Shown here: positions 3,518 through 64,000 of the stretch, one piece after another | Numbering within the stretch: the first letter of the stretch is position 1 | Layout of the letters: each line of letters starts with the position of its first letter | IMG/VR virus record: IMGVR_UViG_3300037963_002079 | Strand: one strand, 5' to 3' | Length of the DNA stretch: 64,000 nt | Origin: an uncultured virus (IMG/VR IMGVR_UViG_3300037963_002079) | Taxonomy: Duplodnaviria; Heunggongvirae; Uroviricota; Caudoviricetes | Made by a program: the position numbers and the translations under genes | The notes under the pieces: generated by a model | Seen by the model: only the letters and a program-made list of their open reading frames with translations | Told to the model about the DNA's origin: nothing | Database searches by the model: none

Positions 3518-3519
3518 CA

Positions 3520-3669: not shown

Positions 3670-3673
3670 TAAT

Positions 3674-3849: not shown

Positions 3850-3873
3850 TATTATAAATATAAATTGTGAATT

Positions 3874-5100: not shown

Positions 5101-5114
5101 TAATATAAATATTT

Positions 5115-5143
5115 GGGGGTCTTTGACCCCCTTTTATTTTTTT
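5115..5143 (+). terminator. intrinsic terminator ending the early operon
   Basis: gggggtc-ttt-gaccccc followed by ttttatttttt. Confidence 0.8.
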
Positions 5144-5172
5144 ATAGTATATTTACCGTCCCAAAAACAATT

Positions 5173-15350: not shown

Positions 15351-15845
15351 TTATTTATTTTTTAAATAATCCTCTATATCTTTAATATACTTAGTTCTAC
15401 CATTTTTTTTGATAGCAATTACTTCTTGTTTTCTATTTGGTCTATGTGATACCCAGCTAATATGTACCCAGTTAGGGTTACCATCAGGATACTCACCACC
15501 AAACTCCCATACCATTTGGTCAAATTCTAGATTATCTTTTATATAATGATACATTTCTGCGTTTGTTTTATGTCCAAACGTGTCATCTATATCTATAGCT
15601 TGACCTTTCATGTGTTGTGAATGTTTACTACCGCCTATAGCTGTATTTACAGGTTCCCCCCTAAAAAAACTATTTACTTTTATAGGTCCACCAACCCACT
15701 TACGTAATGGTTCAAACAGATTTTCTGCTACTTCTGCCATACATTTTAATTGTTTAGGATTCGGTGTATTGTCTAAATTTAATCTTTCACCAGTTCTACT
15801 GTACGTAGCCTCGTGATATGTTATGTGGTCGCTTATTTTTGCCAT
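15351..15845 (-). CDS. endolysin, peptidase M15 family
   Basis: SFFR...NTAIGGS, SQHMKGQAID, WVHIS zinc-peptidase motifs. Confidence 0.9.
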   Translation of the reverse strand: MAKISDHITYHEATYSRTGERLNLDNTPNPKQLKCMAEVAENLFEPLRKWVGGPIKVNSFFRGEPVNTAIGGSKHSQHMKGQAIDIDDTFGHKTNAEMYHYIKDNLEFDQMVWEFGGEYPDGNPNWVHISWVSHRPNRKQEVIAIKKNGRTKYIKDIEDYLKNK

Positions 15846-16180
15846 TAGTCTAGTTGTGGTCTCATTGATGAATAATTATTTTTTCTAGGCATTGCACATC
15901 CATGTGCACAATTCCATTTTCTTAATGCTTTATTAATTCTTGAATTAGGGTCTCTAGCTGTTTTTGCAGATGTTAATCTTTTTTTCATACCCTTCATACG
16001 TGCACAAAAAGATTTTCTACGTTTTGCAGCTTTAGAACCTTTTTTTAGTTTAGAAGGTTTAGTTGTTACAGGTGCTTTTATATTTTGTCCTTTAGCTCTT
16101 AATGATGCACGACCTTTTGCGTTCAAACCACCTGAAGGATTTTTACCTTCTTTTCTTTGCCAAGCTGGTGTTTTTGCCAT
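15845..16180 (-). CDS. small basic phage protein (DUF6321-like) ending QLD
   Basis: PAWQRKEGKNPSGGLNAKGR...RRKSFCARM...ALRKWNC. Confidence 0.7.
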   Translation of the reverse strand: MAKTPAWQRKEGKNPSGGLNAKGRASLRAKGQNIKAPVTTKPSKLKKGSKAAKRRKSFCARMKGMKKRLTSAKTARDPNSRINKALRKWNCAHGCAMPRKNNYSSMRPQLD

Positions 16181-39900: not shown

Positions 39901-40680
39901 CGGGATGTCGTTATTATCTACACGAGTTTTTGCGTCTTCAGATAACTTATCTATATCTATATATATTTCATCTTTTAAACCTTTATTATAATCGTGGTCA
40001 TCAGCATTTTGTTCTATATTTTCTTTGTACTCTGGTGTTGAGTTATATTCATTGGTTGTAAATTGTTCATCGTTTTGTCCCCAATATCCTGTACCCTCAT
40101 AAACATCTTTGTAAGCACCATACCCATCGTCCATTGTTCTATTGAGGTTTTTTCTTTCACCAAAATTTTCATCATAATCAGTTCTTATTTTTGTTTTGCC
40201 CTGTCTACGTATTGAGTTTCCATCTTTTGTTTGAACCTCAATATGTAAATGGTCGGAAATTACCCTCCTACCTCCTTTTCCACTGTTTGGAACATTATAC
40301 TCATCAAAAACCATGATATTGTGTTTTTTACACCATACCTCTGCTTTTGGAGATAATTTCCAATTTTTCATATCTTTTGAATTGAAATTATCCTTATCAA
40401 ATTGTATTAAAGGTGGGTCAGCGTTTGGGTCGTTAAATAAAAACTCAAAAAATGCACTGTTATCACTATGCACTAAATCAAAAGCTGCGCCTGTACTATG
40501 CGCGCTGTGTATCCATCTTGACCTGTCTCCCCTTTCTACCCTTCGTAGACTTGTTACGCTAATATCTATTCCATAAGCTAATAAGTCTTTTAGAGCCTCA
40601 GCTAATTCTGGTCTGACAACTCTTTCAGTGTCACCAGAATACTTTTCAGTTATTTTACCTGACTTTTTCTTTTCTGCCAT
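36940..40680 (-). CDS. virion cargo protein with N-terminal M15-like peptidase domain
   Basis: TSLRR...SAHSTGAAFD...DHLHIE; long acidic middle; helical C-terminus. Confidence 0.7.
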   Translation of the reverse strand: MAEKKKSGKITEKYSGDTERVVRPELAEALKDLLAYGIDISVTSLRRVERGDRSRWIHSAHSTGAAFDLVHSDNSAFFEFLFNDPNADPPLIQFDKDNFNSKDMKNWKLSPKAEVWCKKHNIMVFDEYNVPNSGKGGRRVISDHLHIEVQTKDGNSIRRQGKTKIRTDYDENFGERKNLNRTMDDGYGAYKDVYEGTGYWGQNDEQFTTNEYNSTPEYKENIEQNADDHDYNKGLKDEIYIDIDKLSEDAKTRVDNNDIPTFESTPTNTHELVLDTYTDERGSNLLPSIISDLESKGYKVETRKDKNGKLNQDVIYFENEEDANKARDYVRNQVTYDGSLDVYTQKIQTTTQQPTDETTTPETTTPETTNNQITIVVENNRDFEENPITKEEVQNVVNYQRDSDQLKQDFKDGKLPYNSLFIIDGVLYKKGFDDSVHEYDRESRTFDDQRQFPTVIDDLEFDELPVPTPEDPGDAIKEFENRGKSRENEDVEEIIEPEEEFPEPISKPNRTDYPLDPNKKSEGRFNPLTKGKTYNEALEEYNKQEAERKEREERVKRETTTVTPSDTDENRNIIAEDDSDNEFLTNELNKIAEEAGSNKRLENNKVVTVEEDEKQETKETEETEETVISIEEVVKNDYMNDKGYTSEDQLTEEDKQFIQAELENASLDEEAVKKQVQDKIRGDTYLQEKYQGMDINDIIMSPTFGNDFADIYDNIVVGDTEQKTVENETTGTVETTGDTETTEFEGERYGDSEREILDYIFQASDEDLDKLKQLKKDRNFITKNKVGNDKILKAADEDTAGSGKVTSEQYYELDSSLRNDYTEVIDWNTGESFYIRTDWINRSEGQRANDLRRKRESGSITAEEIEELEKLDTGYHIRDVLTRADVYMNTKGHPGGQTKQYTGGLEEVNQFINNRRTLIIETGKDPEIQLSPEQTEIYNKVIDENYDESNLETDFEIFYNQPIVYRTQIVDEDGRITYEGDEFLTTPSDVTTTVTGPPTTDTDKQQIPPVVTREDVRTLGDIGQEVLKGTMAAARGVLDAFGGPDALVSAVMGKKALGVAMQDLNPQEKAKLSPMFNEQLRQSKELTKRGFHPSQERKIRKDISQAYNQGLDNAVRGTAGDRAKFLATSGILDRNRASALLEFAALDSQQQIANQDRYNQLLQFKETFDAQQKESLRSENLELALANKKAASQFAGIALGDTMSRLSDLADNEINRALKNEMFNRYNYMFNTDKTNPYLTSTINPE
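39578..39614. repeat. 15-nt tandem repeat encoding ETTTP
   Basis: gtttcaggtgtagta twice plus a partial third copy. Confidence 0.8.
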
Positions 40681-41911
40681 TATGAATACATATTATTTTT
40701 TTTCCACTTTTTTATATTCTTCATTGCCACCTTTGCAATTTGTTTATCTGACATATCTTCTTTAAACTGGTCAGTAGCATGGTCATATATACCAGCTCCA
40801 TCACCTACTTTGAATTTTAATGGTCCACCTCCAGCATATATAGTACCGTCTGATGTAACAGGCATCGGATTGTTTTTGTGTGACTCTTCACCAGGTGTAA
40901 TCATTCCACCTTTCATAGCTTTTCTTATTGGTCCAGCCGCTTTCTTAAANNNNNNNNNNTATCCTGGTCATTTACTATCAATTCGTTTCCAGTAAACTCT
41001 GCTGTAATATTATTCAATTTTTTACCACCAGTATTATACATATATCCTCCATACATAGTATTTCCAACATCACCTCTAGACGCCATTTGGTTATTTGATA
41101 TACGTCTTCTTTGTTCATCTACAAGATTTTCATATCTACTTTGAACATCACCCTGCGCACTAGCTTCTTCTTTTTGTTTTCTTCTTGACCTTCCTTTTCT
41201 AAATAAATACCCTAACCCTGCCGCTACTAAAGGAACATATGGAGCGGCTGCCATTAATGCTGGGTTTGAAGTTAAACCTAATAAAGATGAAGCTTTTGCT
41301 CCTGTCATGTAATCTCCTATACCCATACCTATAGCTTCTTTTGTATCGTAAGTATATGGATTGTTATCACTTGCTAAACCATAAGCTATAGCCGCTATAG
41401 CTCCAGTGTTACTAGGGTTTATTATACCCTCAGGATTCAATCCTGGTATATTATATGATACAACATCTTTCGCTGTATACATATCAAGTGGATTTACTGT
41501 TGCAGCTGTTTCCGTTGCTGCATATGGGCCTGTAAATCCTTGTGTCGCAATTTCAGTATATTCTTTTCCTACATTATACAATGGGTTATTTGGATTTAAT
41601 GGTACATTTACTTTTGTTTGTCCTCCAATTTTTTCTGCTATATTTTGTATGCCTTCACTTTCAGTTATTTTATCCAATCTACCTATGTTTTCATAAGCTG
41701 ACATAGCTCTATCTACATTTGTAGGCTCTGTATACATGTCACTCGTAATCATAGGATTCATCTGAGCTTCTTCTGTTCTAGCTTGAGAAAGAGCATCTGT
41801 TGCTCCCTCGTCCATATATGCTGATGAAGAAAATGGATTGGTAGGTTGATATTGTCTTGTGACTCTATTCCTATCTTGGTATTGTCTTAGTATATCTACG
41901 TAACTTGGCAT
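40680..41911 (-). CDS. virion cargo protein split by an assembly gap
   Basis: Frame is open on both sides of the N-run: ...EFTGNELIVNDQD [gap] FKKAAGPIRKAMKGGMITPGEESH... Confidence 0.7.
40950..40959. other. scaffold gap (N10)
   Basis: Ten N bases. Confidence 1.
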
Positions 41912-51172: not shown

Positions 51173-51178
51173 TCGTTA

Positions 51179-51916
51179 TTACTTTTTTAAATTATCTATT
51201 TCTTTTTCTATTTCAGAAATTGCAGAACCAGCTCTTAGTGGATGTTGTTCCACTTCTTCTAATTCAATAGTTTCTTCTACAGGTGTTACTCCAGTTCTAA
51301 GTTGGTGTTTTAATAATGCGTATGTATCACCATTATCTTTTAACCATACAATAGCCTGGTCATCTGTCATACCTATATTAAGTGTATTATGTTTCCATAC
51401 ACCATTTACTTTTGTTAAAAGTTTTTCATTAAAAGCTTTTTTCAAAAATATTCTATGTTCTTTATCAATGTCGTTTAATTGTTCTAAGAACTTTGCTGGT
51501 TTTGTACTCGCGTGTTGTATTATTTTAGCTCTTAACAACATTTCTTGTAAAGTACTATCCAGTCCAAGTAATAAAGCAAAATCTTTTAATTCTTGTTCTT
51601 TTAGTTGTGAAGCTGTTGTCACAGCTTGTGCTGACAAAATTGATGTTTCTGCATTCTGTCTTTCTGTTGCAGACACATCTTCAACTATAAACTTTTTTAT
51701 TAGAGGATGGTCTTTTAAAAACTCATATACAGACTTGTCGTACTCGTCATTTATATTAAGTGATACAACTGCGTTAAACATTTCATATCCACTTGTTTCT
51801 AATCCATTTATGTCTATTAATTTTTGTATTTTACCTCTTTTATCTTTGTAAGTACCAAACTTACAGTAATTAAATTTTTCTGGTTTTCTTGCTTTAATTA
51901 ATACGATGTGTTTCAT
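51179..51916 (-). CDS. conserved crAss-type structural-module protein
   Basis: YEFLKDHP, PAKFL and AIVWLKD motifs; downstream of the capsid gene. Confidence 0.6.
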   Translation of the reverse strand: MKHIVLIKARKPEKFNYCKFGTYKDKRGKIQKLIDINGLETSGYEMFNAVVSLNINDEYDKSVYEFLKDHPLIKKFIVEDVSATERQNAETSILSAQAVTTASQLKEQELKDFALLLGLDSTLQEMLLRAKIIQHASTKPAKFLEQLNDIDKEHRIFLKKAFNEKLLTKVNGVWKHNTLNIGMTDDQAIVWLKDNGDTYALLKHQLRTGVTPVEETIELEEVEQHPLRAGSAISEIEKEIDNLKK

Positions 51917-51945
51917 TTTATTTATTTTTTATTAATACTCCCTAT

Positions 51946-52149
51946 TTATTTGGATAATTTCTTACCCTTATTTTCTTTAATTATTCTTCCGTTTTCTACC
52001 CATGTTTTATTGGCAGACTCTGTTCTCCATTTGAATCCAGACTGCCCGCCTATGTAAAATCTTTTTTTGTTTTTATCAGCTTCTGCAGCTTTCTTTTTTA
52101 AGTAATCTGGGTCACCTGATAAATCTTGTAAATATTTCATTAAATTCAT
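51946..52149 (-). CDS. hypothetical basic protein
   Basis: 67-aa ORF in the operon. Confidence 0.5.
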   Translation of the reverse strand: MNLMKYLQDLSGDPDYLKKKAAEADKNKKRFYIGGQSGFKWRTESANKTWVENGRIIKENKGKKLSK

Positions 52150-52206
52150 GGTCTTCGTTTTAAGAATTTGGGGGAGCCTAAACTCCCCCTAAACTCTAAT
52201 TATCTA

Positions 52207-52761
52207 TTAAGATTCAGCATCAGCAAAAGGTGTAGCCAATGTACCATCTCCAACTAGTACTCCAGAAACTAACCAATTAGTTCCATCACATACTATTCGA
52301 ATATGACCACCTGGGTCGTTACCCTTTGTAGCAGCGTCTAAATTAATAAAATCATTACTGTCATTGTCAGAATTAAAATGTTCTGATTTATCGGAAGTAT
52401 CTTTATCAACAAGGACAAGTCCTCCAATAAAGTAACCATCACCAACTGTAATGTGTGTCGCATTAGAAGCTTGAGCGTGATTTATCATAATATCTACATA
52501 CCAACCAGCTCCTGCTTGAGCAGCAGTTGGTAAAGTCAAGATACCAGCACTAGTATCACCTGTTACAACGATACTACCACTATCACCGTTCTCTATACTC
52601 AAAGCAGAACTCCATGTAATAATGTTAGCTTTTGCTGCTCTTAATTGTGGAACAAAGATAGCTTCTTTTCCACTTGCAACCGCGGAACCGTCAGATTGAG
52701 AACCAGGTAAAAAACCTCTAATTGCAGTTCTTAGTTTGTTAAAATCAAATTTTATTGCCAT
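52207..52761 (-). CDS. capsid decoration / auxiliary capsid protein
   Basis: DSG...LTLPTAA..G, DGTNWLVSG, LATPFAD; start moved to MAIKFD at 52761. Confidence 0.6.
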   Translation of the reverse strand: MAIKFDFNKLRTAIRGFLPGSQSDGSAVASGKEAIFVPQLRAAKANIITWSSALSIENGDSGSIVVTGDTSAGILTLPTAAQAGAGWYVDIMINHAQASNATHITVGDGYFIGGLVLVDKDTSDKSEHFNSDNDSNDFINLDAATKGNDPGGHIRIVCDGTNWLVSGVLVGDGTLATPFADAES

Positions 52762-52845
52762 TTTTTTTAAATTTTTAAAGTTTATAAATAGGAGACCTGC
52801 ATTAAGGCACAATCTTCTACAGGCCCCCGTTAATTAATTATATGC

Positions 52846-53142
52846 TTACGCAGATATTGCAACAGCAGCACACGCAGTAACATTTGGCATAAATACACTA
52901 TTTATGTCGTCAGCAACTGTATACACTCCTCTTGTTTCAGTTAATATTCTACCAAGTTCTTTTAAGACCTCATCACCTTTTCCAGAATCTACAGTAATAT
53001 CAGCGGTTCCGATTCCGTTGTCGTCACCAGCAAATGATATTTCAATATTAGTGTCTGATGTAGCGGAAATAAATCTTACAGCATTACCAGGTATTAGAAT
53101 TTTTTCATCTGCGTCTTTTATTAAAACTAAACAATTTTTCAT
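52846..53142 (-). CDS. small capsid-associated protein
   Basis: 98-aa ORF immediately after the major capsid gene. Confidence 0.55.
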   Translation of the reverse strand: MKNCLVLIKDADEKILIPGNAVRFISATSDTNIEISFAGDDNGIGTADITVDSGKGDEVLKELGRILTETRGVYTVADDINSVFMPNVTACAAVAISA

Positions 53143-53168
53143 TTTTTAAATTTTTTAAAGGTTAATAA

Positions 53169-54716
53169 TTACGATACAGAAAGGATACCACAAGATAATG
53201 GGTTTCTAACTACGATACCAGTTTCAGAAAGCACGTGTGCTTCAAACTTGTCATCAGCGTTAGCAGCCAACATTGAACTTTGGTCATAAGGGTTTACCAT
53301 TCCAGAAACATATTTCTTAATCATACTTCTGTTAGTTCCCTCAGCTCCTTTAGTAACTAACTCAACATTAGATACACCAGAAGTACTTCCGAAGTCCATG
53401 AATACCATCTTAGCAGACTCTTTTAATCTGTTGTCACCAAATGAATTAGTTCCACCAGCAGTAGAGTGTAAGTGTGGGTCATCGAACACTGGACAGTAAG
53501 CGATTGTAATTTTGTTTCCTAAAGCTTGGTATGAAACGAAGTTAGCTCCTAAGTCTACATTTCCGCTTACACCTGACATAGAACCACCAGTAAACGCACC
53601 CGCTGGGGCAACGATTAATTCTTTCATAGCTCTATGGAACGCTAATCTACCTTCAGTACCAGTAAATACTACATACTCGTTACCTTCTGATTGAGTTGCG
53701 TTAAGTGATAATTTAGCAATAAACTCAGTGATTATATCTTCAGTTAAAGACCCCATTGAATATGAAGCTTGGTTTGAAGAATCAATTTGAGCTAATAAAC
53801 CATCACCTGTAATAATAGAAGCACCTGCAGTTCCTGAAGTTCCTAAAGCAGAAGAAACCAAAGCTCCTGGTCTTGCTACAGTGTTTACACCTCCTTCATT
53901 AGTTACAGACTTTCTTCCGTACCATCTTTGTAATTCTTGTTGGTACATGAACTCGTCCATCATCATTTGTTCTCTTGTAAAGTACCATAATCTAGAACCA
54001 TTGTTTTCAATCCAAGAAATATCGGTAAGGTCTTTACCTGTTACTGTACATTTCTTTCTCATTGTAGTTAAATAGTTCTTATGTGTTGATGGGTAGTAGA
54101 AGTTCTCACCTACATCAGCTCCGTTGGAACCATTTGGAAATGCAGAACCGATAGAAGCAATAATAGCTTCGTCAGCTACATCTGTTTCTAATAAAGGTTG
54201 AGCAGACGCGTCTACCATTTCAAATTTTACAACGAAATCTGTAGAAGCTGCTGAAGCAGTTGTGTTAGCAATTGGGTCTTCTACAACGATAGCAGTTGCT
54301 CCTGATTGGAATCTTACCATATCGAACTTGTTTAAGAAGTCACCAGTTCTATCTGTAGCTGTACCATCAATTATAATTTCGAATACATCACCATTAGCAT
54401 CAGCTCCATCTAAAATAATACCTGTAGTTGATGTTGGTGTATTCGTAAATGCTGTATCAGCAGATACTCCTTTAAAGAAACCTGTAGAATATGATGGTCT
54501 ATTGTATCTTCCCATTACCTTCCACTCAAAAGAGTTGTCTCCTAATACTTTTTCTTGTGCGAACCTTCCAGTTCTTTCTAATAAATACGTAGCTGAGTAT
54601 CTTGGATATTGCTGAATTAAAGTTCTAGCAATTTCTGGATACTGCATTAAAGCTGTATTTAGGGCGTTTTCTGCGGTAGTACCATTTCCGTACTCACCTG
54701 AATAAACTTTTGCCAT
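53169..54716 (-). CDS. major capsid protein
   Basis: 515 aa after portal and scaffold; FEWKV, NYLTTMRK, GDGLLAQI, VFTG, PVFDD, GIVVRNPLSCG. Confidence 0.85.
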   Translation of the reverse strand: MAKVYSGEYGNGTTAENALNTALMQYPEIARTLIQQYPRYSATYLLERTGRFAQEKVLGDNSFEWKVMGRYNRPSYSTGFFKGVSADTAFTNTPTSTTGIILDGADANGDVFEIIIDGTATDRTGDFLNKFDMVRFQSGATAIVVEDPIANTTASAASTDFVVKFEMVDASAQPLLETDVADEAIIASIGSAFPNGSNGADVGENFYYPSTHKNYLTTMRKKCTVTGKDLTDISWIENNGSRLWYFTREQMMMDEFMYQQELQRWYGRKSVTNEGGVNTVARPGALVSSALGTSGTAGASIITGDGLLAQIDSSNQASYSMGSLTEDIITEFIAKLSLNATQSEGNEYVVFTGTEGRLAFHRAMKELIVAPAGAFTGGSMSGVSGNVDLGANFVSYQALGNKITIAYCPVFDDPHLHSTAGGTNSFGDNRLKESAKMVFMDFGSTSGVSNVELVTKGAEGTNRSMIKKYVSGMVNPYDQSSMLAANADDKFEAHVLSETGIVVRNPLSCGILSVS

Positions 54717-54799
54717 TTTTTTAAATTTATTAATTAAACATTATTTTATTTTGTTCAATTAACTTTCAACTCTAGCAGACTTTGTCTTACTTTTTTTAT

Positions 54800-55798
54800 C
54801 TACTCGCTCATGAACGCTTTTGGGTCAAAACCTTTACTTTTCGGTTGATAAGTATTTCGGCTTCTTCCCGTGTTAAGGCTTGGCGATTGTATTTTGTCCA
54901 TAAGACTCTTACTACCCTCGTTACGACCTTGTGAACGAAGAATGTCTTTAATTTGGTCTTTGTATAACATAAACATGGCCACATCTGCAACATTGGCATG
55001 GTCTGACCATAATTCTTTTGACATACTATTAACAGCAAATCTGTACGCTTCTTCTTTCTGTTGTTTCGTTATTTTCCCGCCCATAAACCTGTCCATATTT
55101 TTAAATTGTTTTTGCAATCCTTTTCTAGCTTCCTGAACTCTTCTATTTTGTTCTTCCTTAGTTTGTTTTGTTTCTCTTACTAAATCTTGTCTTTGTTGTT
55201 TTATAGCGTTTTTAATGGTTCTTTTGATTTCTCTACCTTTTAAAGCAATCATACCATTTTTCATCATTTTGTCTACAGTGTCATCTATTTCGTCATCTGT
55301 TAGACCATCTGCTTTTAGTTCTTCTATAACTAAATCTTTGTTTGAGAAAGACAAATAAGTTTCTAATGTTCTTATTTGTTCGTTTGAAACTTCTTCAGTT
55401 TGTGGTTCCTCTTGTTTATTGTTAAGAGCGTTAAGACTTTCTCTTATCTCATCTTTTGAAGCTCCTTCCATTCCGAGTTGTTTTGAAACTAAGTCCCAAT
55501 TAATTTCATCTCCTGATTCATTAGTCTCTTCTGTACCGTCCCAGTTATAAGTTTCTTCTTCTACTTCTGATTCTTCTTTTTCTTTTTTTTCCCAAGACCA
55601 TCCGTCTTCTTCTTCTTCTTCTGTTTCTACAGATTCATCTGTAGTTTCTGTTGTTGTTTCCGTAGCTATTGGACCAACTTCTCCTGTTGGTTCGTCTTGT
55701 GTAAAAGCTAGTGGATTAAACTTGTTTAAATCGTTTTCTTCTGTAGCAGGCGTATCATTTACAACCTCTTCTACTAATTTTGAATTTTCTTCTGACAT
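54800..55798 (-). CDS. putative scaffolding protein
   Basis: Very acidic N-terminus, helical core, between portal and capsid genes. Confidence 0.7.
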   Translation of the reverse strand: MSEENSKLVEEVVNDTPATEENDLNKFNPLAFTQDEPTGEVGPIATETTTETTDESVETEEEEEDGWSWEKKEKEESEVEEETYNWDGTEETNESGDEINWDLVSKQLGMEGASKDEIRESLNALNNKQEEPQTEEVSNEQIRTLETYLSFSNKDLVIEELKADGLTDDEIDDTVDKMMKNGMIALKGREIKRTIKNAIKQQRQDLVRETKQTKEEQNRRVQEARKGLQKQFKNMDRFMGGKITKQQKEEAYRFAVNSMSKELWSDHANVADVAMFMLYKDQIKDILRSQGRNEGSKSLMDKIQSPSLNTGRSRNTYQPKSKGFDPKAFMSE

Positions 55799-55825
55799 AT
55801 TATTTTATTTTTTGTTCCCTATCTG

Positions 55826-55833
55826 CAAATATA
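55826..55833 (-). promoter_or_regulatory. TAnnTTTG -7 promoter element for the capsid operon
   Basis: TATATTTG in the intergenic gap. Confidence 0.7.
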
Positions 55834-55837
55834 CAAA

Positions 55838-58099
55838 TTAATTTACATTTTTTTCTTTTGCTCTTATAATATCTTGTATTGATGGTTTTTCACTAGGTGG
55901 ACCTTGACTCTCCGCTGACTTAGAAGCAGCTTCTTTTCTCATGTCTGCCTCTACGTCACTATCATGCATATCACGCTTGTCATCTGACGACATACGAGCA
56001 ACTTCTAATCTAGACTCAGCTCCGATTTCCGCCACTCTTATCTTAGCTTCATTATCTATCTGTTTCAATTGAGCTTCTCTTTCAAACTTTTGTTGTTCCA
56101 TTTGTTCTTGCATTTGCATTTGTTGCATTGCTTGTTGTTGTTGTTGTGCAGCTTGTTCTTTTATTTGGTCCATACCTTTTTCTAAAACTTTTTCAGCTTC
56201 AGTCATTGTATCAGCTTTAATAACTTTTAATATATTTAAGAAATCTATTTGACCTGATTGTAAAGCTGATTGTGCTAATTGTTGTACCACTTGTTTCATA
56301 GCGTCATCTTTACCACTGTCTCCAACATATACACCATAATCCTGTAAAGCAATATCAGGCATTACACTGATAAATTTATACGCACCATCTCCTAATATTA
56401 AAGCTGCTTTCTTTCCGTCCGCCCAAGCAATCTTCATATAGTTTGCTAGTCTTTCTAAAACTCTTTGTTTTACTTCTGCATGTGAATAGAACCATGACTC
56501 TGTTATAGTAGAAGATTGTACTACACTTCTTTGTACATTACCTACATATTCATATTGACCTACAGCACCTTCTCTTTGTCTTGTAACACCAGATAACTGA
56601 CCAGCCATATCCTCTAACATAATTTTTAAATTAATTAGTTGTTGTACAGATTGTGATAATGTAAAATCGACTTGTTGAAACTGATTAAATGAACTTACTT
56701 GTCCTCCTTCGTCTTTAGAGTTGATTGGTATAATACCATCTGTTTTTAAATGATACAATACAGTCTGCATGTCCATACCTACATTGGTTGGTATTTGTGA
56801 AGTATCGTATACCACAGCTTTACCACCTGAACGAGCCATAGCTAATTCTATTTGATATATAACTATATTATATAACATCTGTGTATTGTGTAATAAATCT
56901 ACCATAGATGTATTTGTACCAGTTGTGTTTCCATATATACACCCTACATATGATAGTGGTGTTCTACCTGGGTCATCAACTGACCTTACTTGATTATCTC
57001 TACGTTTTGCTTTTGTTAAGATTTTACCACCAATTTTTGTAGCTTCCCAAATGTCATCCACCCATTTTATTTCTATTTCTTCTCCCTTTCTTTTTCTGTA
57101 TGTATCCTTTACCATTTTTCTAAATGGTCTGTCTGGGTCATATTTGTTAGGTGACACCTTAAACTTAATAGCTCTAAGTGATTTCCATTCACATGTTACT
57201 ACACGTATACGATTTTCTCTACCTCTAGAACTGTCTATCCACATAAACTGTGTGTTATAGTCATCTAGGTCTTGTCCATACGCGTGTCTCATTTCGTCTA
57301 TTAACCTTAAGTCTTCTTCTGACAAGAATTGTTTGTATTCATCAGCTATTTCGTTTGCAGATAAAAATCTCTCTTCACCCACCCAAGCTGCATCATCTAT
57401 ATAATCTGAATGTACACTTGAATCGTATATTATAGCTCTTGGGTCTATCCTACGCGCGTGTGGGTCTCCATTTAGTATCTCTACTTTGTAAAACTCCTTA
57501 CCTGTTACAAGTAAATCTCTAAAACCTTCTTTAAACTTATCTTTTAAGTTGTATCTATTTAACACATATTCCAAACCATCCTGTGCAACTTCTTCTACCA
57601 TTTCTCGGTAGTTATATTTCATAAATGTATCTATATCATCAGGAACTGGCATACCTTGTCCTTCGTCAGTAATTGGAGCTCCATAATTCTCTTCAAACTC
57701 TTTGTGTATATCCTGTAATAAATTTTTCATTTTCAAAGCTACCTTGTAATCTAGTTTTCTAACTACAGCTTCTTTATTGACAGTAGAGACTTTCATGTCT
57801 ATAGGTCTTTTAAGGTCTTCACCTACCAATAAGTCAATCTTTGGCGTAATAATAGGATAATTAACCAGTCTAGCTGGATAGGTTAATCCATACTGTTCTG
57901 TTATATATGTATAGTCGTCTTGGTTTATTTGACCATTATAAATACTATAATTTTTAATGTCTTTAGTTCTAGAACTTTCATATGGACTTTCTCCATATGT
58001 CATATAACTTATGACCGCCTCTAGAACTCTATTACACCATTCGTCATTTTTTTCTTTTTCAGAAACCATCATAGATGGAAAACTAGTATTGTATGCCAT
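55838..58099 (-). CDS. portal protein
   Basis: 753 aa after TerL; NYPIITPKIDLLVGE, SGVTRQREG; Gln-rich coiled C-terminus. Confidence 0.9.
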   Translation of the reverse strand: MAYNTSFPSMMVSEKEKNDEWCNRVLEAVISYMTYGESPYESSRTKDIKNYSIYNGQINQDDYTYITEQYGLTYPARLVNYPIITPKIDLLVGEDLKRPIDMKVSTVNKEAVVRKLDYKVALKMKNLLQDIHKEFEENYGAPITDEGQGMPVPDDIDTFMKYNYREMVEEVAQDGLEYVLNRYNLKDKFKEGFRDLLVTGKEFYKVEILNGDPHARRIDPRAIIYDSSVHSDYIDDAAWVGEERFLSANEIADEYKQFLSEEDLRLIDEMRHAYGQDLDDYNTQFMWIDSSRGRENRIRVVTCEWKSLRAIKFKVSPNKYDPDRPFRKMVKDTYRKRKGEEIEIKWVDDIWEATKIGGKILTKAKRRDNQVRSVDDPGRTPLSYVGCIYGNTTGTNTSMVDLLHNTQMLYNIVIYQIELAMARSGGKAVVYDTSQIPTNVGMDMQTVLYHLKTDGIIPINSKDEGGQVSSFNQFQQVDFTLSQSVQQLINLKIMLEDMAGQLSGVTRQREGAVGQYEYVGNVQRSVVQSSTITESWFYSHAEVKQRVLERLANYMKIAWADGKKAALILGDGAYKFISVMPDIALQDYGVYVGDSGKDDAMKQVVQQLAQSALQSGQIDFLNILKVIKADTMTEAEKVLEKGMDQIKEQAAQQQQQAMQQMQMQEQMEQQKFEREAQLKQIDNEAKIRVAEIGAESRLEVARMSSDDKRDMHDSDVEADMRKEAASKSAESQGPPSEKPSIQDIIRAKEKNVN

Positions 58100-58100
58100 T

Positions 58101-59918
58101 TTAATTCATTTTTATTGGTATGCCGTTTCTACCACGTTTATAATATTTCAATCCTATATCTATTACTTCTTCTTTTTCATGTACTCTCATTCTAAAGTTG
58201 TCTATATTATGTATTAGACATATACCAAAAGCCATAGCTCGGTCAGTATTTTGTAAACCATAATTTGCCAACTCATCTATCAAATCTAAAAACCATATGT
58301 CTCTCACATTTTCTCTAATGTAATCATCTATCAAATCTTCCAACAAACTCTTAACCTGTTTATTCATATGGACACCATATTGGTTTCTTGTCCTAGAATT
58401 AGGGTTGTGAGCTGACTTAGGTTTTTCTTTCAAATATTTCAACGCGTTCATACGTTTAAAGTAATCTAAAATACCTATCTTTGTATATTCAACTAACATC
58501 TTAGCATTATAATACACAGCTAACTTTAAACAACCGTCCCAAAAATCTTCTTTTTTAGGCGGTCTATCAGTATATTCAGCTACCACGTAATCACTTGGTA
58601 TATTTGTATTTGCAAATCTACGATAAATTATTGCACTTCCCAAAGAATTTGACGCTCCAGCGGTATCTTGGTCGTAAGAATCGACTCCACCAATGTCAAT
58701 TCCCTCGTATTCTGTCATTGGGTGAGCTAAAATTTTGTATGGACCCTCTGGGTGTGGTTTCCATTTTACTTTCATTTCTCCACTATCTGTAAACACCCAA
58801 TCTAAATATCCGTTTTGTATTTGACTTGTATAGTCTTTACTACTTAGTATTCTACTTCTTTGTGCATTTAACAATGATATATCAAACCTACTTTGTTTAG
58901 TATTCAAAAAAGCTTCTTGTATAGTTAATGGATAGTTTTGTATATGTAGATTGTAAGCTTCATTATCACCAGATTGTCTAATATTTTCTCTTTCTTCTTG
59001 TAATGTTTCTTCAGCTCCAATGACATCTTCTACACCTGTTTCTACATCAAAGAAACCATAGTAGGCTTTTGAAGCTGGTATAAACATAGGTATTAAATTA
59101 TAGGCGTCATGACTATAATACATATCCATAAAATCTTTAGACGCTCTTGATATATCACCTCCAGTACCTCCAATTATCGGTACACCAAACTGTACATTAC
59201 CATCCATAAAACATGCCTTAGACGACATGTATGCATTTTTCAAATGTTTAAACTCTCCAGCTTCTTCGAATACCATTAATGACAAACGCTCTCCCTTAAA
59301 TACTTCTGGATTATCCATCGTTCTGCATATAACTGTGGACTGGTAACCACCAATCTCCCACTTACCATCTTTGTTTTTCTGTTTATAGCCCGAACGTAAT
59401 ATACCATCTGTATCCTTTAGTACTGAGTGTTTGAAATTAGGATGAATACCATTCAACCCTTTTTTAGTCTTATCAAAAAATGCGTCAGCAGTGGCCTGCA
59501 AACCTGCCGCTACACCAATATCATTGTATGGAAAGAAAGTATACTCATGAGCTACCATACCAGAGTTCATATAAGAAAACCCTTTATCTCTGGCTTTAAT
59601 AATAATCATACCCTTTCCTTCCTCTTTACAAGTTTCAAAAAGGTTAAAATACTCTCTATCCATTTCCCTGTACCATGGATGTATTAATGACTTTCTTCCA
59701 CCTTTGGAACCGTCATTACCCAATATATAATAAAAATTCAGGTAGAAGTAATACTTACCTGAAATAGCTGGCATACCTTTTGGTTTAAAACCATTTATAC
59801 ACCTATCTTGTTGTTCAGACCACCATTCCTGGTATTGAACTGAGTTTTCGTCTAAATCTGGAAAACCGTTGTTTGGAATTGGCCTGTACCTTTGTGGATT
59901 AAATTTAATTTTACCCAT
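58101..59918 (-). CDS. terL: terminase large subunit
   Basis: KARDKGFSY Walker A, FEEAG Walker B, GGTGG, GVDSYD nuclease motif, DRAMA. Confidence 0.93.
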   Translation of the reverse strand: MGKIKFNPQRYRPIPNNGFPDLDENSVQYQEWWSEQQDRCINGFKPKGMPAISGKYYFYLNFYYILGNDGSKGGRKSLIHPWYREMDREYFNLFETCKEEGKGMIIIKARDKGFSYMNSGMVAHEYTFFPYNDIGVAAGLQATADAFFDKTKKGLNGIHPNFKHSVLKDTDGILRSGYKQKNKDGKWEIGGYQSTVICRTMDNPEVFKGERLSLMVFEEAGEFKHLKNAYMSSKACFMDGNVQFGVPIIGGTGGDISRASKDFMDMYYSHDAYNLIPMFIPASKAYYGFFDVETGVEDVIGAEETLQEERENIRQSGDNEAYNLHIQNYPLTIQEAFLNTKQSRFDISLLNAQRSRILSSKDYTSQIQNGYLDWVFTDSGEMKVKWKPHPEGPYKILAHPMTEYEGIDIGGVDSYDQDTAGASNSLGSAIIYRRFANTNIPSDYVVAEYTDRPPKKEDFWDGCLKLAVYYNAKMLVEYTKIGILDYFKRMNALKYLKEKPKSAHNPNSRTRNQYGVHMNKQVKSLLEDLIDDYIRENVRDIWFLDLIDELANYGLQNTDRAMAFGICLIHNIDNFRMRVHEKEEVIDIGLKYYKRGRNGIPIKMN

Positions 59919-60186
59919 ACCTTAACTTTCTTGGTTTGTCAAAACCAAAAACATTTTTGTTACTTAATTTATTTTGCTCCTTTGTTTCGTACCAATTTCT
60001 TAAATCTAATTGATACTGTTTTAAACTATAATCATTATACTTATTTGCCTTTTCTAAATTCCCTGTAGTATAATGTTTTTTAAACTGTGACTTTAAATAG
60101 GTTACAATTCTTTTTTTATCTTTACCTTTTATAGATATATCTTGTTCTTTAAACTGTATTGGTTTTCTGACACTTTTCTTAAACAT
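59911..60186 (-). CDS. hypothetical basic protein
   Basis: 91-aa ORF overlapping terL. Confidence 0.6.
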   Translation of the reverse strand: MFKKSVRKPIQFKEQDISIKGKDKKRIVTYLKSQFKKHYTTGNLEKANKYNDYSLKQYQLDLRNWYETKEQNKLSNKNVFGFDKPRKLRYG

Positions 60187-60511
60187 GTTGTTCTTTTAAT
60201 CTAAACATTCTACCCTGACAACAACACATTCCATTTGGTTTTACGTTACCTCTGTATCTCATGCCATGTGCAGCTTTTTTTGTTTTTTTGTATCTAGAAA
60301 CTCTACCTTTTTTATTTTTTTCTTTTTTTGCTCTAGCTTTTTCAGATGGTGATAATTCTGACCATGTAGCAGGTGTATCTTTGCTTATACGTTTAGTTGG
60401 CCTAAAAGTATTTTCACCTCCAGAATAATCTTTCTTACCTCTAGGTGTTCTCCAATCTTCCTTAAACCATCTTTTTAATCTAAGTCCAGCTTTTGTTTTT
60501 CTTACAGCCAT
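60179..60511 (-). CDS. small basic phage protein (DUF5872-like) ending QHV
   Basis: LKRWFKEDW...RPTKRISKDTP motif. Confidence 0.65.
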   Translation of the reverse strand: MAVRKTKAGLRLKRWFKEDWRTPRGKKDYSGGENTFRPTKRISKDTPATWSELSPSEKARAKKEKNKKGRVSRYKKTKKAAHGMRYRGNVKPNGMCCCQGRMFRLKEQHV

Positions 60512-60513
60512 AA

Positions 60514-60843
60514 TTAATCGTGTTGTGGGTTATTTCTAAAATGCACTTTACCTCCTTTATTCCATTTCTTTACTGCTTTTGCAAAATCTGAACCAGGAGG
60601 AAAATTTTTTTTAACTGTAGTTTTTATACCTTTTTTTACATCTCTTTTAACGTCTCTATAAACTCTTTTTCCTTCTTTGAGTCCTCCTTTTAAACTTTTC
60701 ATAGCGCTATCAAAACTTCCCATTTCAAGATTTGAAAAAAGTCCATGTTCTTTCCAATTGTAAGGTTTTCCACTTACGTGACTATACCCTTTTTCAGAAA
60801 ATGATTTTTTCTTTTTCTTTTTCTTTTTCTTTCCGTCACTCAT
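60514..60843 (-). CDS. Lys-rich protein ending QHD
   Basis: Poly-Lys N-terminus; WNKGGK...PQHD*. Confidence 0.6.
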   Translation of the reverse strand: MSDGKKKKKKKKKSFSEKGYSHVSGKPYNWKEHGLFSNLEMGSFDSAMKSLKGGLKEGKRVYRDVKRDVKKGIKTTVKKNFPPGSDFAKAVKKWNKGGKVHFRNNPQHD

Positions 60844-60845
60844 AA

Positions 60846-61034
60846 TTAATCGTGTTGTGAGTAGAATACTCCTCCAGATTTATATTTCATTCCTTTTGCT
60901 CCTTTCTTTTTGGATTTGTTCCCCCAATTTGCAGCTCCTACTTTACGGCATTTGGCCATAGCTCCACTTCTATAAGCAGATGTTTTAGGTCCATAACGAG
61001 CTACTACTTTATGATAACAAGCATCTTTTGGCAT
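60846..61034 (-). CDS. small basic protein ending QHD
   Basis: KDACYHKV...SAYRSGAMAKCRKVG...YKSGGVFYSQHD*. Confidence 0.65.
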   Translation of the reverse strand: MPKDACYHKVVARYGPKTSAYRSGAMAKCRKVGAANWGNKSKKKGAKGMKYKSGGVFYSQHD

Positions 61035-61204
61035 TATTTTTTCTTTTTAGATTTATGTACTTTTTGTATATCAAAACTGGCGGACAAACTTCCACCAGGG
61101 TGTTTTTTGAATCCACCCGCAGGGTTTTTCATTAATTTGTAGGTATTGTTACCTTTTTTCATCCAGTGAAATCCAGCTGGTGCTTTAACAGTTTTTCTTG
61201 CCAT
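61034..61204 (-). CDS. small basic protein (56 aa, not in ORF track)
   Basis: MARKTVKAPAGFHWMKKG...KVHKSKKKK*; TAATG coupling to the next gene. Confidence 0.65.
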   Translation of the reverse strand: MARKTVKAPAGFHWMKKGNNTYKLMKNPAGGFKKHPGGSLSASFDIQKVHKSKKKK

Positions 61205-61205
61205 T

Positions 61206-61736
61206 TTATAATTCTTTAATTTTTTTTCTATTTTCTAAGAAAGACAATCCTTTGTCTCCCGCAATTTTTTGTCTTTCTCCTCTTCTTTCTATAGCGTCAA
61301 GTAATGCTTGTCTAGTTTTTAATATTTTTTCTACACCAATCATTAACTTCTGCAACATTTCTGCGTTCTCATCATTCAAGAAGGTATTATTAATAAGATT
61401 TGTGAACTCGTTTATTTTTTTATTAAACGCAATTAATTGTTCGTCTAATGGGTCAAACTGTAGTTCTTTATACTTATTTATAGCTGATTTCATTTCAGGT
61501 TTATTTGCACCCGACCAACTATAAGTATCGTACAAATCTTTTGATACTACCTTTATTCTTTCATTTTCTATGTAGTGTCTGTATGGACTTTCGTAGTCAA
61601 ATACAAGAGCTATCCACTTCATAGCTGTTTGTCCTAATTTTTCAGTGTCTAACACTTTTTTAAATTCTGGTATTAAAACAATTCCAGAATCGTCTTTATA
61701 AATATCTCCCTTTTTATTAATTTGTAATAAATACAT
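61206..61736 (-). CDS. conserved packaging-region protein, terminase small subunit candidate
   Basis: IPEFK...DYESPY...AINKY..LQ motifs; upstream of terL. Confidence 0.55.
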   Translation of the reverse strand: MYLLQINKKGDIYKDDSGIVLIPEFKKVLDTEKLGQTAMKWIALVFDYESPYRHYIENERIKVVSKDLYDTYSWSGANKPEMKSAINKYKELQFDPLDEQLIAFNKKINEFTNLINNTFLNDENAEMLQKLMIGVEKILKTRQALLDAIERRGERQKIAGDKGLSFLENRKKIKEL

Positions 61737-61999
61737 TATATTGTTACGTGTAATAATTTAAATGTATTTTTATACAAATATTTTACAGTTTTCTTACCAT
61801 ACAATAAATCTAATTCAAGGTGTGGATTTTTGTATGTTGATATAGAATTGTCTAAATATATAAAGTTATTTTCTTCAATTCTATCTATAATTTTATCCAC
61901 TTCTTGCATTAGTTTATCTAATTGTTTGTAGTTCTTTTCTAGATAAAAAAATTCACCTTCCTTAACTATCCTTCCGTACTTTTCATTTATTATGTTCAT
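61736..61999 (-). CDS. hypothetical protein
   Basis: 87-aa ORF with TAATG coupling. Confidence 0.55.
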   Translation of the reverse strand: MNIINEKYGRIVKEGEFFYLEKNYKQLDKLMQEVDKIIDRIEENNFIYLDNSISTYKNPHLELDLLYGKKTVKYLYKNTFKLLHVTI

Positions 62000-62003
62000 A
62001 CTA

Positions 62004-62011
62004 CAAAGATA
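62004..62011 (-). promoter_or_regulatory. TAnnTTTG -7 element, likely leaderless transcript
   Basis: TATCTTTG-tagt-ATG. Confidence 0.6.
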
Positions 62012-62025
62012 ATAATAATTTTTTG

Positions 62026-62057
62026 TAAAAAGAAAAACCCCTCAAAAAATAAGGGGT
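62026..62057 (-). terminator. intrinsic terminator
   Basis: acccct-N9-aggggt followed by ttttcttttt on the - strand. Confidence 0.8.
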
Positions 62058-62098
62058 CCTCCAAAACAAGTATGAAAACATGGAAAATAAAGAAGTTG

Positions 62099-62132
62099 CA
62101 AAATTACAAAAATTTTTTGTATTTCACACAAA
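62099..62132 (-). promoter_or_regulatory. Bacteroidetes-type promoter (-33 TTTG / -7 TAATTTTG)
   Basis: TTTG-N22-TAATTTTG, intergenic. Confidence 0.6.
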
Positions 62133-62147
62133 TAATCTTAAACTTTA

Positions 62148-63908
62148 TTATTCTGAAGTATATTTGTCCATTAATTGGTTTTCAAACGAATCAGGAGCGG
62201 TGTGTGTTTGATACTCAAAGTGATATGGGTCAGAATAAGATTGTTCCATGTCTTCTCCAGCAAAATATCTATTGATGTCTCTAGAAAAACTATATGGTAC
62301 ATCAAATATTGACCTTAATCTATAAAACTGTGGAAAATGTGCAGACTCCGCTATAAGGTCAGATACATATTCTTGCATATTTATATTTTCTACAAATTTG
62401 CTACCTGATTTTGATGGTTCTGGGAATGCTATATGTATATTTCTTGTAAAAGGATTAAAATGAGGTCTGAATCGTGAAAATCGGGTTCCCATTTTTTTAG
62501 GAAATTGTTTAGCCAACATATGTGGTTCATTTATAATTTTATCCATACCCAAATCTTCTACCATTTTCATAAGTTTTGTATAATGGACTAATCTGCCGTC
62601 AGGCATTTCTACGAATTGGGCTTGACCATCTGAAGCTTTAAAAGCATCATATATATTTTTTTGTGGTTGTGATAGTTTGTTATATGATTCTTCTTTTAAA
62701 TCAACAAACTCTATTTCAGGTAGCATTACGTTAGTAACTGGTTCGTCTAAATTTTTTTTTTTACCTCCGTTCTTAAATTTACCACCCTTTTTAAAATTCA
62801 TAACCATTGTGTTCATATCTTGATTCATAGGTAATGAAACCATTGTGTTCATGTTTTGGTTCATTGGTAAAGACACAACGCCTGGTATATATCCTTTATC
62901 TTCTCCTCCATGACGTTTTATCCAGTCCCCTAGATATGAATTGTAAAAAACTTTATTTCTACCCAACTCTCTTTTTATTTCGTTTGGTTTTCCTTTGTTT
63001 TTATATGAATGTCTTTTGTACTCTGCTGCCGCTTTTTTTACATTTCCAGTCCTAATAGCGTCCATAAACTTTGGAAACTTTTTAACTGCGTTTCCTAAAT
63101 TGTATTCAAAATCTACCAACATAAGTTTTTCTATTTCGGACAGTTTTTCAAATTCACCCTCCCCAAATTTACCATCGAAATCTTCACTTAAACTTTTCAT
63201 ATTAGAGTTAATGTCTTGTCGAAGAAAATCATTCGCTTCTTTTACAGTAATACCGTTTTTATAATCATTTTCTATATCCAATCCTTTGACAGCACTATTA
63301 GTTCTTCCAAAACCTATAGTAACTTTACCTCCAACATCTTTGTATGGATAATATCTTCCGTTTTCAAAAGCTTTATAAAATCCTCCACCTGGTTTTGGTA
63401 TAATAGAAGGTGTTTTCTTCATTACAGCGTCGGAAGCTTCTACTGATTTTACATAATTTGTATAATACCCATAGTTATCAACTTTAGGAGTTTCTTCTGT
63501 TGTAGTTCCTCCGTTCTCATACATCATCACACTAGGATTTACAAATGGATTTTCGATTGTAGTATCTATATTGTATGGTGTTAAAGACAGAGAGCCACCA
63601 CCCTTAGTGGCTTTTCTATCTATAATTCCTGACTGCCTAGACACTGAGGTCCCTACACCAGCCTCTGTTACACCAGAATCACCAACTCTTGGTTCTAAAC
63701 CATCTCTTGGGTCACCTACATCACCTCTTTCTTGCGGATTGTCTAAAGTAACATCAGTAAAGGTAGGTCCACCCATGTTTTGATTGTAAGGGTCAAAGGT
63801 ACCTCCAGTATTCATTATCTGACGACTTTTTAATATAGCGTCCTCTATTATCATAGGTACGTGTTTAACATTACCTATCATGTTAATCATGTCCTTATAT
63901 GAACCCAT
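62148..63908 (-). CDS. virion protein with lysozyme-like (GH24-type) domain
   Basis: PYKDVGGKVTIGFG, ITVKEANDFLRQD, DFEYNLG...FPKF. Confidence 0.75.
   Translation of the reverse strand: MGSYKDMINMIGNVKHVPMIIEDAILKSRQIMNTGGTFDPYNQNMGGPTFTDVTLDNPQERGDVGDPRDGLEPRVGDSGVTEAGVGTSVSRQSGIIDRKATKGGGSLSLTPYNIDTTIENPFVNPSVMMYENGGTTTEETPKVDNYGYYTNYVKSVEASDAVMKKTPSIIPKPGGGFYKAFENGRYYPYKDVGGKVTIGFGRTNSAVKGLDIENDYKNGITVKEANDFLRQDINSNMKSLSEDFDGKFGEGEFEKLSEIEKLMLVDFEYNLGNAVKKFPKFMDAIRTGNVKKAAAEYKRHSYKNKGKPNEIKRELGRNKVFYNSYLGDWIKRHGGEDKGYIPGVVSLPMNQNMNTMVSLPMNQDMNTMVMNFKKGGKFKNGGKKKNLDEPVTNVMLPEIEFVDLKEESYNKLSQPQKNIYDAFKASDGQAQFVEMPDGRLVHYTKLMKMVEDLGMDKIINEPHMLAKQFPKKMGTRFSRFRPHFNPFTRNIHIAFPEPSKSGSKFVENINMQEYVSDLIAESAHFPQFYRLRSIFDVPYSFSRDINRYFAGEDMEQSYSDPYHFEYQTHTAPDSFENQLMDKYTSE
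62802..62879. repeat. 36-nt imperfect tandem duplication encoding VSLPMNQ[N/D]MNTM
   Basis: Two adjacent 12-aa units with synonymous differences. Confidence 0.8.
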
Positions 63909-63909
63909 A

Positions 63910-63999
63910 TTAGTCTAATTGTCTATAAGTACCTCCAGATTTATAAGTAGTTTTCATTTTTCCACCACCCATATAGGTCATCATATTGTTCATCATTCT
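63910..63999 (-). CDS. 3' end of a gene truncated by the window edge, ending QLD
   Basis: ...RMMNNMMTYMGGGKMKTTYKSGGTYRQLD*. Confidence 0.65.
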   Translation of the reverse strand, partial: RMMNNMMTYMGGGKMKTTYKSGGTYRQLD

Positions 64000-64000
64000 T

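Follow-up and report, generated by a model that had tools for sequence, protein, structure and literature searches.

A shared C-terminal Gln-x-Asp tail on unrelated small basic proteins of crassvirus-like phages and its possible role in capsid loading

Small basic late proteins with unrelated bodies share a short C-terminal tail ending in Gln-x-Asp (QxD) in the genome of an uncultured virus, IMG/VR record IMGVR_UViG_3300037963_002079. We analysed a stretch of 64,000 nucleotides from this record, which we call the window. The genome is Crassvirales-like and contains a crassvirus capsid protein, a P22-like portal, a crAss-type terminase, and ring proteins recognised with Pfam (PF23898, PF16510) and PHROGs (phrog_6681, phrog_6547); the CrAss_Ring_1 match was above the cut-off and the CrAss_Ring_2 match below it. 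The sequence was best matched in marine metagenomes. One related record, L001, matched the window at 100% over positions 50849-64000 and at 99.8% over 1-5428. Because L001 matches both window ends, the genome is probably circular with approximately 1.6 kb outside the window. No close cultured phage was found, as all 205 matches of the terminase large subunit (TerL) in the phage collection were below 60% identity, and a host search among genome contigs gave no match.

Four genes of the window end in Q[HL]D followed by the stop codon and a fifth ends in EQHV-stop, all on the minus strand and at the positions listed in an earlier note on this stretch. The DNA words are CAA CTA GAC TAA at 15845-15856, CAA CAC GAT TAA at both 60514-60525 and 60846-60857, CAA TTA GAC TAA at 63910-63921, and CAA CAT GTT TAA at 60179-60190 for the EQHV end. 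These 12-base spans cover Q-x-D-stop only, with the preceding P, S, R, or E just outside. A six-frame scan of the window found six Q[HL]D-stop words, four that end real genes and two in open stretches of 9-10 codons. Contigs from two other studies bridge two of the ends, X8 record 28 over 60405-60597 with 1 difference and X7 record 17 over 60100-60434, including the 60179 end, with 0 differences. A 168-base contig from RNA run X20 covers 60507-60674 and is no evidence of transcription.

The earlier note described the proteins as having no visible similarity elsewhere. Their bodies are indeed unrelated, but each shares an xxG[GCM] site upstream of QxD. The tail of the 62-amino-acid (aa) protein reads YKSGG-VFYS-QHD-stop (60846-60884) and that of the 191-aa protein, the gene of which runs off the window, reads YKSGG-TYR-QLD-stop (63910-63945). 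The DUF5872 protein has a long, cysteine-rich tail, AAHGM...EQHV-stop (60179-60274), that overlaps the next gene by 8 bases. It had been suggested that the overlapping ATG constrains the last codon of this tail. The overlap fixes only the first base of that codon, and the last residue is relaxed in this DUF5872 subfamily because relatives end in A, S, G, N, T, E, R, K, Q, or D. The DUF5872 protein had no match among cultured phages. The 109-aa orphan has one relative, in L087, with the same tail, and a related-locus search with the 191-aa protein returned 7 loci. PDB sequence searches with the 191-aa protein and with the cargo-protein-1-like (C1-like) protein as queries yielded nothing meaningful.

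The enrichment among relatives anticipated in the earlier note was found. In the window plus seven related records, 21 of 633 open reading frames (ORFs) end in Q[HL]D where 0.16 are expected, compared with 0 of 268 in three outgroup records. When the middle position was widened to Q-[HLYFKN]-D and three distant relatives with capsid proteins 50-57% identical were added to make 11 related records, the count was 40 of 869 ORFs against 0.65 expected and 0 of 333 in four outgroup records. These records are related, so that the counts are not independent, and they were cut into 20-kb pieces, so that ORFs spanning the borders were cut or missed. All of the tails fell in one gene class: 40 of 141 small basic ORFs (no more than 260 aa, K+R at least 0.19) had a tail and 0 of 728 others did, with this cut-off and the widened middle class, unlike the strict Q[HL]D count, being picked post hoc. 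A homology-free DNA-pattern scan of all viral contigs gave 36 matches at 33 loci, of which 21 end small basic genes and the other 15 end no ORF of 40 aa.

All 40 tailed genes lie on the strand of the capsid gene. Twenty are near the holin, 15 near the genes for TerL and the probable terminase small subunit (TerS), 4 near a phosphoesterase, and 1 elsewhere. The 45-kb separation of the lysis-cassette copy in the window, which had seemed notable, is therefore ordinary, since there are two recurrent spots, one beside the holin and the other beside TerS/TerL, where the TerS gene serves as the marker.

Codons were compared at 257 distinct ends of small basic genes that have a G[GCM] close by. The pattern CAN-NNN-GAN-stop occurs at 133 of them, always with Gln and Asp codons: 111 CAA and 22 CAG, 105 GAT and 28 GAC, with no CAY and no GAR. 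Glu is as frequent as Asp in the clade proteomes, yet none of the 133 ends uses a Glu codon. A fresh metagenome set had CAR and GAY in 39 of 39 ends. Among 125 distinct Q[HLY]D-stop DNA words at 160 loci, 94 are in-frame ORF ends, a contig edge cuts off 3, and the remaining 28 lie scattered. Thus, purifying selection acts on the peptide and not on the DNA, as the earlier note had supposed, and conservation at the DNA level alone, which it had named beforehand as a refuting result, did not appear.

This bears on two alternatives. The first is that a DNA or RNA signal (promoter, translation coupling, readthrough, or junction) happens to read QxD. An ATG overlaps the stop or lies within 2 bases of it in 99 of the 133 tails and CAC is over-represented among the His codons of the tails (32 of 49 versus a background of 0.29), as such a signal might produce. 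By contrast, the next ATG is anywhere from -1 to more than 34 bases away in all three frames, the middle codon varies (CAC, TTA, TAT, AAA), the Gln and Asp codons follow background usage, RNA folding at five junctions found none that was stable (z -0.45 to +1.78), and the word is absent from the 728 other gene ends. The codon test refutes this explanation, and we give it a negligible probability. The second is that the tails are a neutral relic: a single gene end, with its junction, would have been copied about by duplication or recombination and kept by descent or gene conversion. The two QHD junctions of the window have 19 identical bases in common, CAA CAC GAT TAA is the commonest of 32 tail words (34 of 133), and tails are slightly more alike within than between records (0.208 versus 0.173, p 0.008). 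There is no within-record excess at synonymous sites (p 0.445), from which we conclude that recent gene conversion is not the explanation of the tails. In addition, Q and D are kept while the spacer varies in sequence and length (2-23) across records with capsid proteins just 50% identical. The lack of third-position changes to His or Glu (0 of 133) largely refutes a relic, making it very improbable. Recombination may explain how the tail spread, but not its retention.

The full unit is [YFCA]-x-x-G-[GCM], a spacer usually of 2-14 residues, and Q-[HLYFKN]-D with a free carboxylate. In 152 distinct tails, the spacer has 2-4 residues in 84 and is longer (to 23) in 65, and 3 lack the [YFCA]-x-x-G-[GCM] site; GG is frequently replaced by GC or GM in the small tailed proteins. 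Of 146 Q[HLYF]x ends, 121 have Asp as the last residue. The combination of GG and QxD had 130 distinct terminal and 3 internal occurrences, and a tail profile run against 1.84 billion proteins had 4 matches, all ending at the last residue, although the profile is too short for a census. We collected 189 tailed proteins, which fall into 27 body clusters, 16 of them singletons that share nothing but the tail, and a single record has up to 7 QxD genes. Judged from these clusters, the tail is portable between unrelated protein bodies.

In the comparison with homologues outside the clade that the earlier note had proposed, the same families elsewhere are free of the tail or have other tails. Of 7999 DUF6321 homologues, the best 120 include 101 with WNC as their last residues and 14 that run on as WNC-xx-GC...Q[HLY][DNS], WNC-xx-GC preceding the tail in all 14 of these Q-tailed proteins. 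Of 564 DUF5872 homologues, the best 120 include 30 with a Q[HLY]x end; among the others, some stop close to the core, some continue into a DUF6321-like domain, and some bear different tails after GG. DUF5872 also occurs in an algal giant virus, as a table entry (PMC12085832). By sequence comparison, the tail is an appendage on a widespread core.

We found a TerL match in 17 of the 24 records searched; the five at 59-79% identity have tails and the 12 at 27-30% do not, with the reading limited to the fetched locus for 11 of these 12. In a quick tree of 28 terminases, all 12 tailed records are on one side of one branch (SH-like approximate likelihood ratio test 99). A second tailed gene was present at 38 of 41 metagenome loci found with a tailed query versus 1 of 35 found with an untailed query, 4 of the loci being incomplete. 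The tail is clade-specific, as would be expected if the phage encodes its reader. Other lineages have other suffixes. Two small basic families of a second crAss-like lineage (L010, L012-L014; TerL 27-30% identical) have GG-F-[IL]-x-P tails, which by sequence comparison are a parallel suffix, and at podovirus-like loci (L029-L033, L038, L039, L050, L051, L055, L064) a DACYH protein ends GCG-x-V...RRK-x-TK-[YM]. At L064 one other small protein also has this last ending.

Alternatively, the host may read the tail, either as a degron or as an acidic end that shields disordered basic proteins from C-terminal proteases. The strict C-terminal position of the tail and its confinement to small, probably disordered proteins are consistent with this, and terminal Asp stabilises proteins in E. 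coli. Against it, the QxD tail is absent from other marine phage lineages that have the same proteins, and the invariant Gln at -3 and its coupling to the upstream GG exceed the needs of stabilisation. Known bacterial C-degrons have small non-polar terminal residues and the tail, which mostly ends in Asp, has no ssrA-type end. We consider a host-read signal to be quite improbable.

The xxGG part of the unit is also found in larger proteins. Large variable proteins near TerS have up to 8 [YF]xxGG sites separating variable domains, and large proteins ending in [YF]TxGG plus two residues are present in 5 of 11 whole records. Across whole late proteomes, xxGG is merely about 1.1-2.2 times expectation, and it is concentrated in cargo-like genes. 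The 586-aa cargo-like protein of the window has three internal [YF]xxGG sites (130, 372, 378). In crAss001, a phage of the same order, gp45 has xxGG sites at 17, 260, 370, 388, 424, and 559. Two pieces of gp45 are modelled in the crAss001 structure, 420 Å apart: residues 214-245 lie in the tail, and residues 425-552 are at the portal wing (PMC10172136). The resolved tail-bound and portal-bound pieces are bracketed by the xxGG sites at 260, 424, and 559. Neither gp45 nor any of the 25 translated crAss001 proteins has a QxD end. The available text describes no such motif or loading signal for gp45 and, although it reports a cargo space of about 5.5 MDa, states no rule for the choice of cargo (PMC10172136).

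These sites raise the possibility that xxGG is a cleavage site and that the stretch from GG to QxD is a clip-off propeptide or an exosite ligand of the protease, lost at maturation or after ejection. The sites between variable domains of large cargo and between the distant pieces of gp45 would fit this, as would the borders of the cyanophage S-SCSM1 gp29 (annotated "virion protein" in RefSeq), in which DACYH and DUF6321 modules are chained with xxE borders resembling gp21 sites. Clan CE proteases cut Gly-Gly maturation sites in adenovirus, African swine fever virus, and giant viruses, and in these systems, as here, Gly-Gly lies near basic peptides or at module borders of core proteins. The cutter could perhaps be the zincin domain of the probable virion RNA polymerase (vRNAP) polyprotein, since the sole conserved protease candidate that we saw was an HExxH, present in the vRNAP ORF of 7 of 11 records; a zincin at this position has been proposed to process the polyprotein (bioRxiv 2020.03.07.982082). 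However, a scan of 46 proteins with Pfam and 19 with PHROGs, which left aside four late and most early ORFs, recognised no protease of the head-maturation, prohead, or clan CE type, and the conservation, unlike that of the clan CE systems, runs on to a fixed C-terminal QxD. Protease, cleavage, and proteolysis are not mentioned in the accessible text of the crAss001 structure paper (PMC10172136), where the model of the portal-bound domain starts at residue 425, ahead of the GG at 427-428. Many xxGG sites, including the [YF]TxGG ends, stop two residues short of the C-terminus, a position in keeping with a binding motif, and GG is often GC or GM. Protease recognition, which the earlier note had listed, is therefore unlikely, even though the GG site makes cutting possible; cleavage would also be compatible with targeting before the cut.

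Another explanation is that the tail mediates contacts among the basic proteins, with other cargo, or with the terminase, so that it serves an inner core or tunes packaging and does not dock to the shell. Along the 191-aa protein, xxG[GM] repeats follow one another and are modelled as successive hairpins, 15 of the 40 tailed genes flank TerS/TerL, and some TerL C-termini (QIN, QLS, QLN) are tail-like. Nevertheless, 24 of the 40 are near the holin or phosphoesterase and not the terminase, and a tail matrix gives the TerL ends poor scores: their ranks in 8 records are 4-29, and only 3 records put TerL at or close to the head of the untailed genes. We regard contacts of this kind as improbable. 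Mimicry of the tail by the TerL C-terminus was set aside as weak by this score.

We favour a different explanation, with about as much doubt as conviction: the tail would be a C-terminal counterpart of the T4 capsid-targeting sequence (CTS), bound by a procapsid component. That the tail is a modular C-terminal address is well supported, because relatives are enriched for it, conservation is at the level of the peptide, and homologues outside the clade are tail-free. This part of the earlier note's proposal stands. As to function, capsid loading is the best inference of the three that it offered, protease recognition is possible via GG, and degradation is the weakest. In the loading model, the aromatic-x-x-Gly-Gly part would fold as a short beta-hairpin and be a general cargo motif, found inside and at the end of large cargo proteins, and the Gln-x-Asp end with its free carboxylate would dock, as a further contact, into a pocket of the scaffold, the portal, or the inner capsid face as the procapsid component. 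Any basic polypeptide that gained the tail would be loaded into the procapsid, where it would neutralise DNA, and it might be ejected with the DNA. Such loading would work like the T4 CTS, at the opposite end of the chain. The composition and gene positions of these proteins and the annotations of homologues suggest that they condense DNA inside the virion. Two of the modules recur in S-SCSM1 gp29 with its RefSeq name "virion protein", which lends virion presence support at the level of homologue annotation, and the bracketing of the resolved gp45 pieces by xxGG sites also speaks for the loading model. In a single-sequence AlphaFold2 model, the 191-aa protein finishes in a hairpin of strands 176-183 and 186-190 that turns at GG, at a local predicted local distance difference test (pLDDT) score of 70-74.

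Known systems resemble this one in part. The CTS on T4 IPI, IPII, and IPIII is a short terminal peptide common to divergent small basic proteins and has been proposed to bring varied proteins into the capsid (PMC9026906). The QxD tail is likewise a short terminal peptide on unrelated small basic proteins, in 27 body clusters. In contrast, the CTS is N-terminal, 10-19 residues long, removed by gp21, and proven by fusions, whereas the QxD tail is C-terminal, is known from sequence alone, has neither sequence likeness to the CTS nor a conserved Glu, and comes with no match to a prohead protease family. The QxD tail falls outside the T4 CTS family. T4-like cyanophages have module chains (phrog_727; S-SCSM1 gp29) with DUF6321 and DACYH modules, also near a terminase gene, but these are fused in one chain with xxE borders and have no GG or QxD tail. 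In S-CREM1 a DUF6321 gene lies between TerS and TerL, its best match being named "structural protein" (PMC9964418). Polyvalent proteins with zincin MPTase domains are similar in being variable, multi-domain, and virion-delivered, with lysozyme and zincin-like domains; the available part of the source describes no GG or QxD motif on them (PMC5512222), and the QxD tail sits on small separate genes.

Several points weigh against capsid loading. No receptor was identified, and neither a virion proteome nor an isolate of the clade was found in the collection searched. Some small basic genes in the same arrays have no tail, and these untailed neighbours, together with large cargo that lacks QxD, indicate that the tail does not serve universally for loading. 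In Pelagibacter phage HTVC033P, seven small basic genes of the same families stand in tandem and share no tail, so the proteins can sometimes do without one. About ten different last residues are tolerated in one DUF5872 subfamily. The hairpin was modelled from a single sequence, with modest confidence (mean pLDDT 65). For S-SCSM1, 45 proteins were found by mass spectrometry, and in the accessible part of the source the mark for ORF29 is not readable (PMC9602691). A complex prediction with the capsid protein, scaffold residues 95-332, and the tail (residues 30-62 of the 62-aa protein) scored 0.00 with controls not folded and speaks neither for nor against loading.

More tentatively, the loading signal may be a two-part code in which an order-wide aromatic-x-x-Gly-Gly hairpin is followed by a lineage suffix (QxD or GG-F-[IL]-x-P), with pockets co-evolving on the procapsid of each lineage. 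If so, a tail of about 10 residues would suffice to load any basic polypeptide, newly arisen ORFs included, and this would be, to our knowledge, the first C-terminal capsid-targeting sequence of such a kind in a tailed phage. The tail was undescribed in the full-text literature searched, outside of which most subscription journals lie and in which DUF6321, DUF5872, or phrog_727 came up in a single paper, as an entry in a table. A short motif on dozens of unrelated proteins of one clade, with other suffixes elsewhere, gives a testable handle on cargo choice in crassviruses. As a loading signal, it would parallel the T4 CTS, itself turned into a protein-delivery tool, and assign a function to DUF6321, DUF5872, and related families, all of them frequent in marine phages; as a cut site, it would point to an unrecognised crassvirus protease. 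The tailed genes, candidate receptors, and cargo-like genes of the window are listed in Table 1.

Table 1. Features of the window that bear on the QxD tail (aa, amino acids).
Feature	Position	Strand	Basis and remarks
DUF6321 small basic protein, 111 aa	15845..16180	-	PF19846 E 1e-18; lysis cassette, between holin and M15 endolysin
Tail C-AHGC...PQLD-stop of DUF6321 protein	15845..15910	-	Sequence; follows core end WNC
Probable vRNAP polyprotein, 3847 aa	23363..34906	-	Size and position; HExxH at residue 1014
Cargo-protein-1-like region	40680..41911	-	Gene position and motif pattern; YNTGG before conserved C-terminal domain
Crassvirus major capsid protein, candidate receptor	53169..54716	-	PF23898 E 5e-37
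Acidic probable scaffold, candidate receptor	54800..55798	-	Position and composition; weak match to crAss001 gp31, E 0.004
P22-like portal, candidate receptor	55838..58099	-	PF16510
TerL	58101..59918	-	phrog_6681; clade defined by TerL
Basic protein before TerL, 91 aa, untailed	59911..60186	-	ORF reading; own ATG overlaps EQHV end
DUF5872 small basic protein, 110 aa	60179..60511	-	PF19197 E 7e-13; core end GRVSRYK
Lysine-rich protein, 109 aa, no known family	60514..60843	-	Tail WNKGG...PQHD-stop at 60514-60564
Basic protein, 62 aa, module also in phrog_727 cyanophage proteins	60846..61034	-	phrog_727 E 6e-15; alignment
Small basic gene inside array, 56 aa, untailed (internal control)	61034..61204	-	ORF reading
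Probable TerS, 176 aa	61206..61736	-	Position and conservation; in 10/10 clade records
Cargo-like protein with lysozyme domain, 586 aa	62148..63908	-	Pfam Phage_lysozyme; no QxD end
Met/Lys/Gly-rich protein, 191 aa, repeated xxG[GM] sites, 3' end	63910..64000	-	Complete in L001 6550-7125

The cargo-1-like gene of the window is read as a 328-aa and a 78-aa ORF around a 10-base N gap. This split is probably an assembly artefact because relatives have a single gene, of 381-530 aa. A profile of the C1 C-terminal domain had no significant match, among the matches listed, to the 25 crAss001 proteins including gp45, and an ESM Atlas search with the 78-aa ORF had a best score of 0.78, a lead only. Upstream of the TerS block, a variable protein of 150-610 aa (L096, L097, L116, L121, and others) ends in [YF]TxGGR[FL]-stop in many records; in the subgroup of the window, the large TerS neighbour frequently ends in INPY-xx instead. 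Residues ~490-570 of the 586-aa protein, past its last GG site, form a zincin-like segment with AExxH replacing HExxH. In crAss001 gp45 (L233), residues 381-424 are a small basic module that has an xxGG site on either side and immediately precedes the portal-bound domain.

The C-terminus of the probable scaffold (54800-54830) has a strongly conserved FDPKAFMxE, likely a coat-binding motif. An invariant FMGG of the scaffold was rejected as an instance of the tail motif, as it is one residue short and is matched by FTGI in crAss001 gp31, which points to a structural turn. TerL C-termini of the clade end in G-[VIL]-P-x-[QKE]-[ILM]-[NKS] (58101-58130 in the window), loosely like the tail. The DUF5872 tail (60179-60274) contains a CCC run and other tails contain GC or CC, and a thioredoxin-like protein is encoded in the late region (21520-21867), present in 9 of 10 clade records; together these suggest possible disulfide cross-linking of core proteins. 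Finally, unrelated genes that end in YG-stop (59911-59918 in the window; crAss001 gp42, L233) do so through an 8-base stop/start overlap, T-ATG-GN-TAA, which is a DNA-level look-alike of a shared tail.

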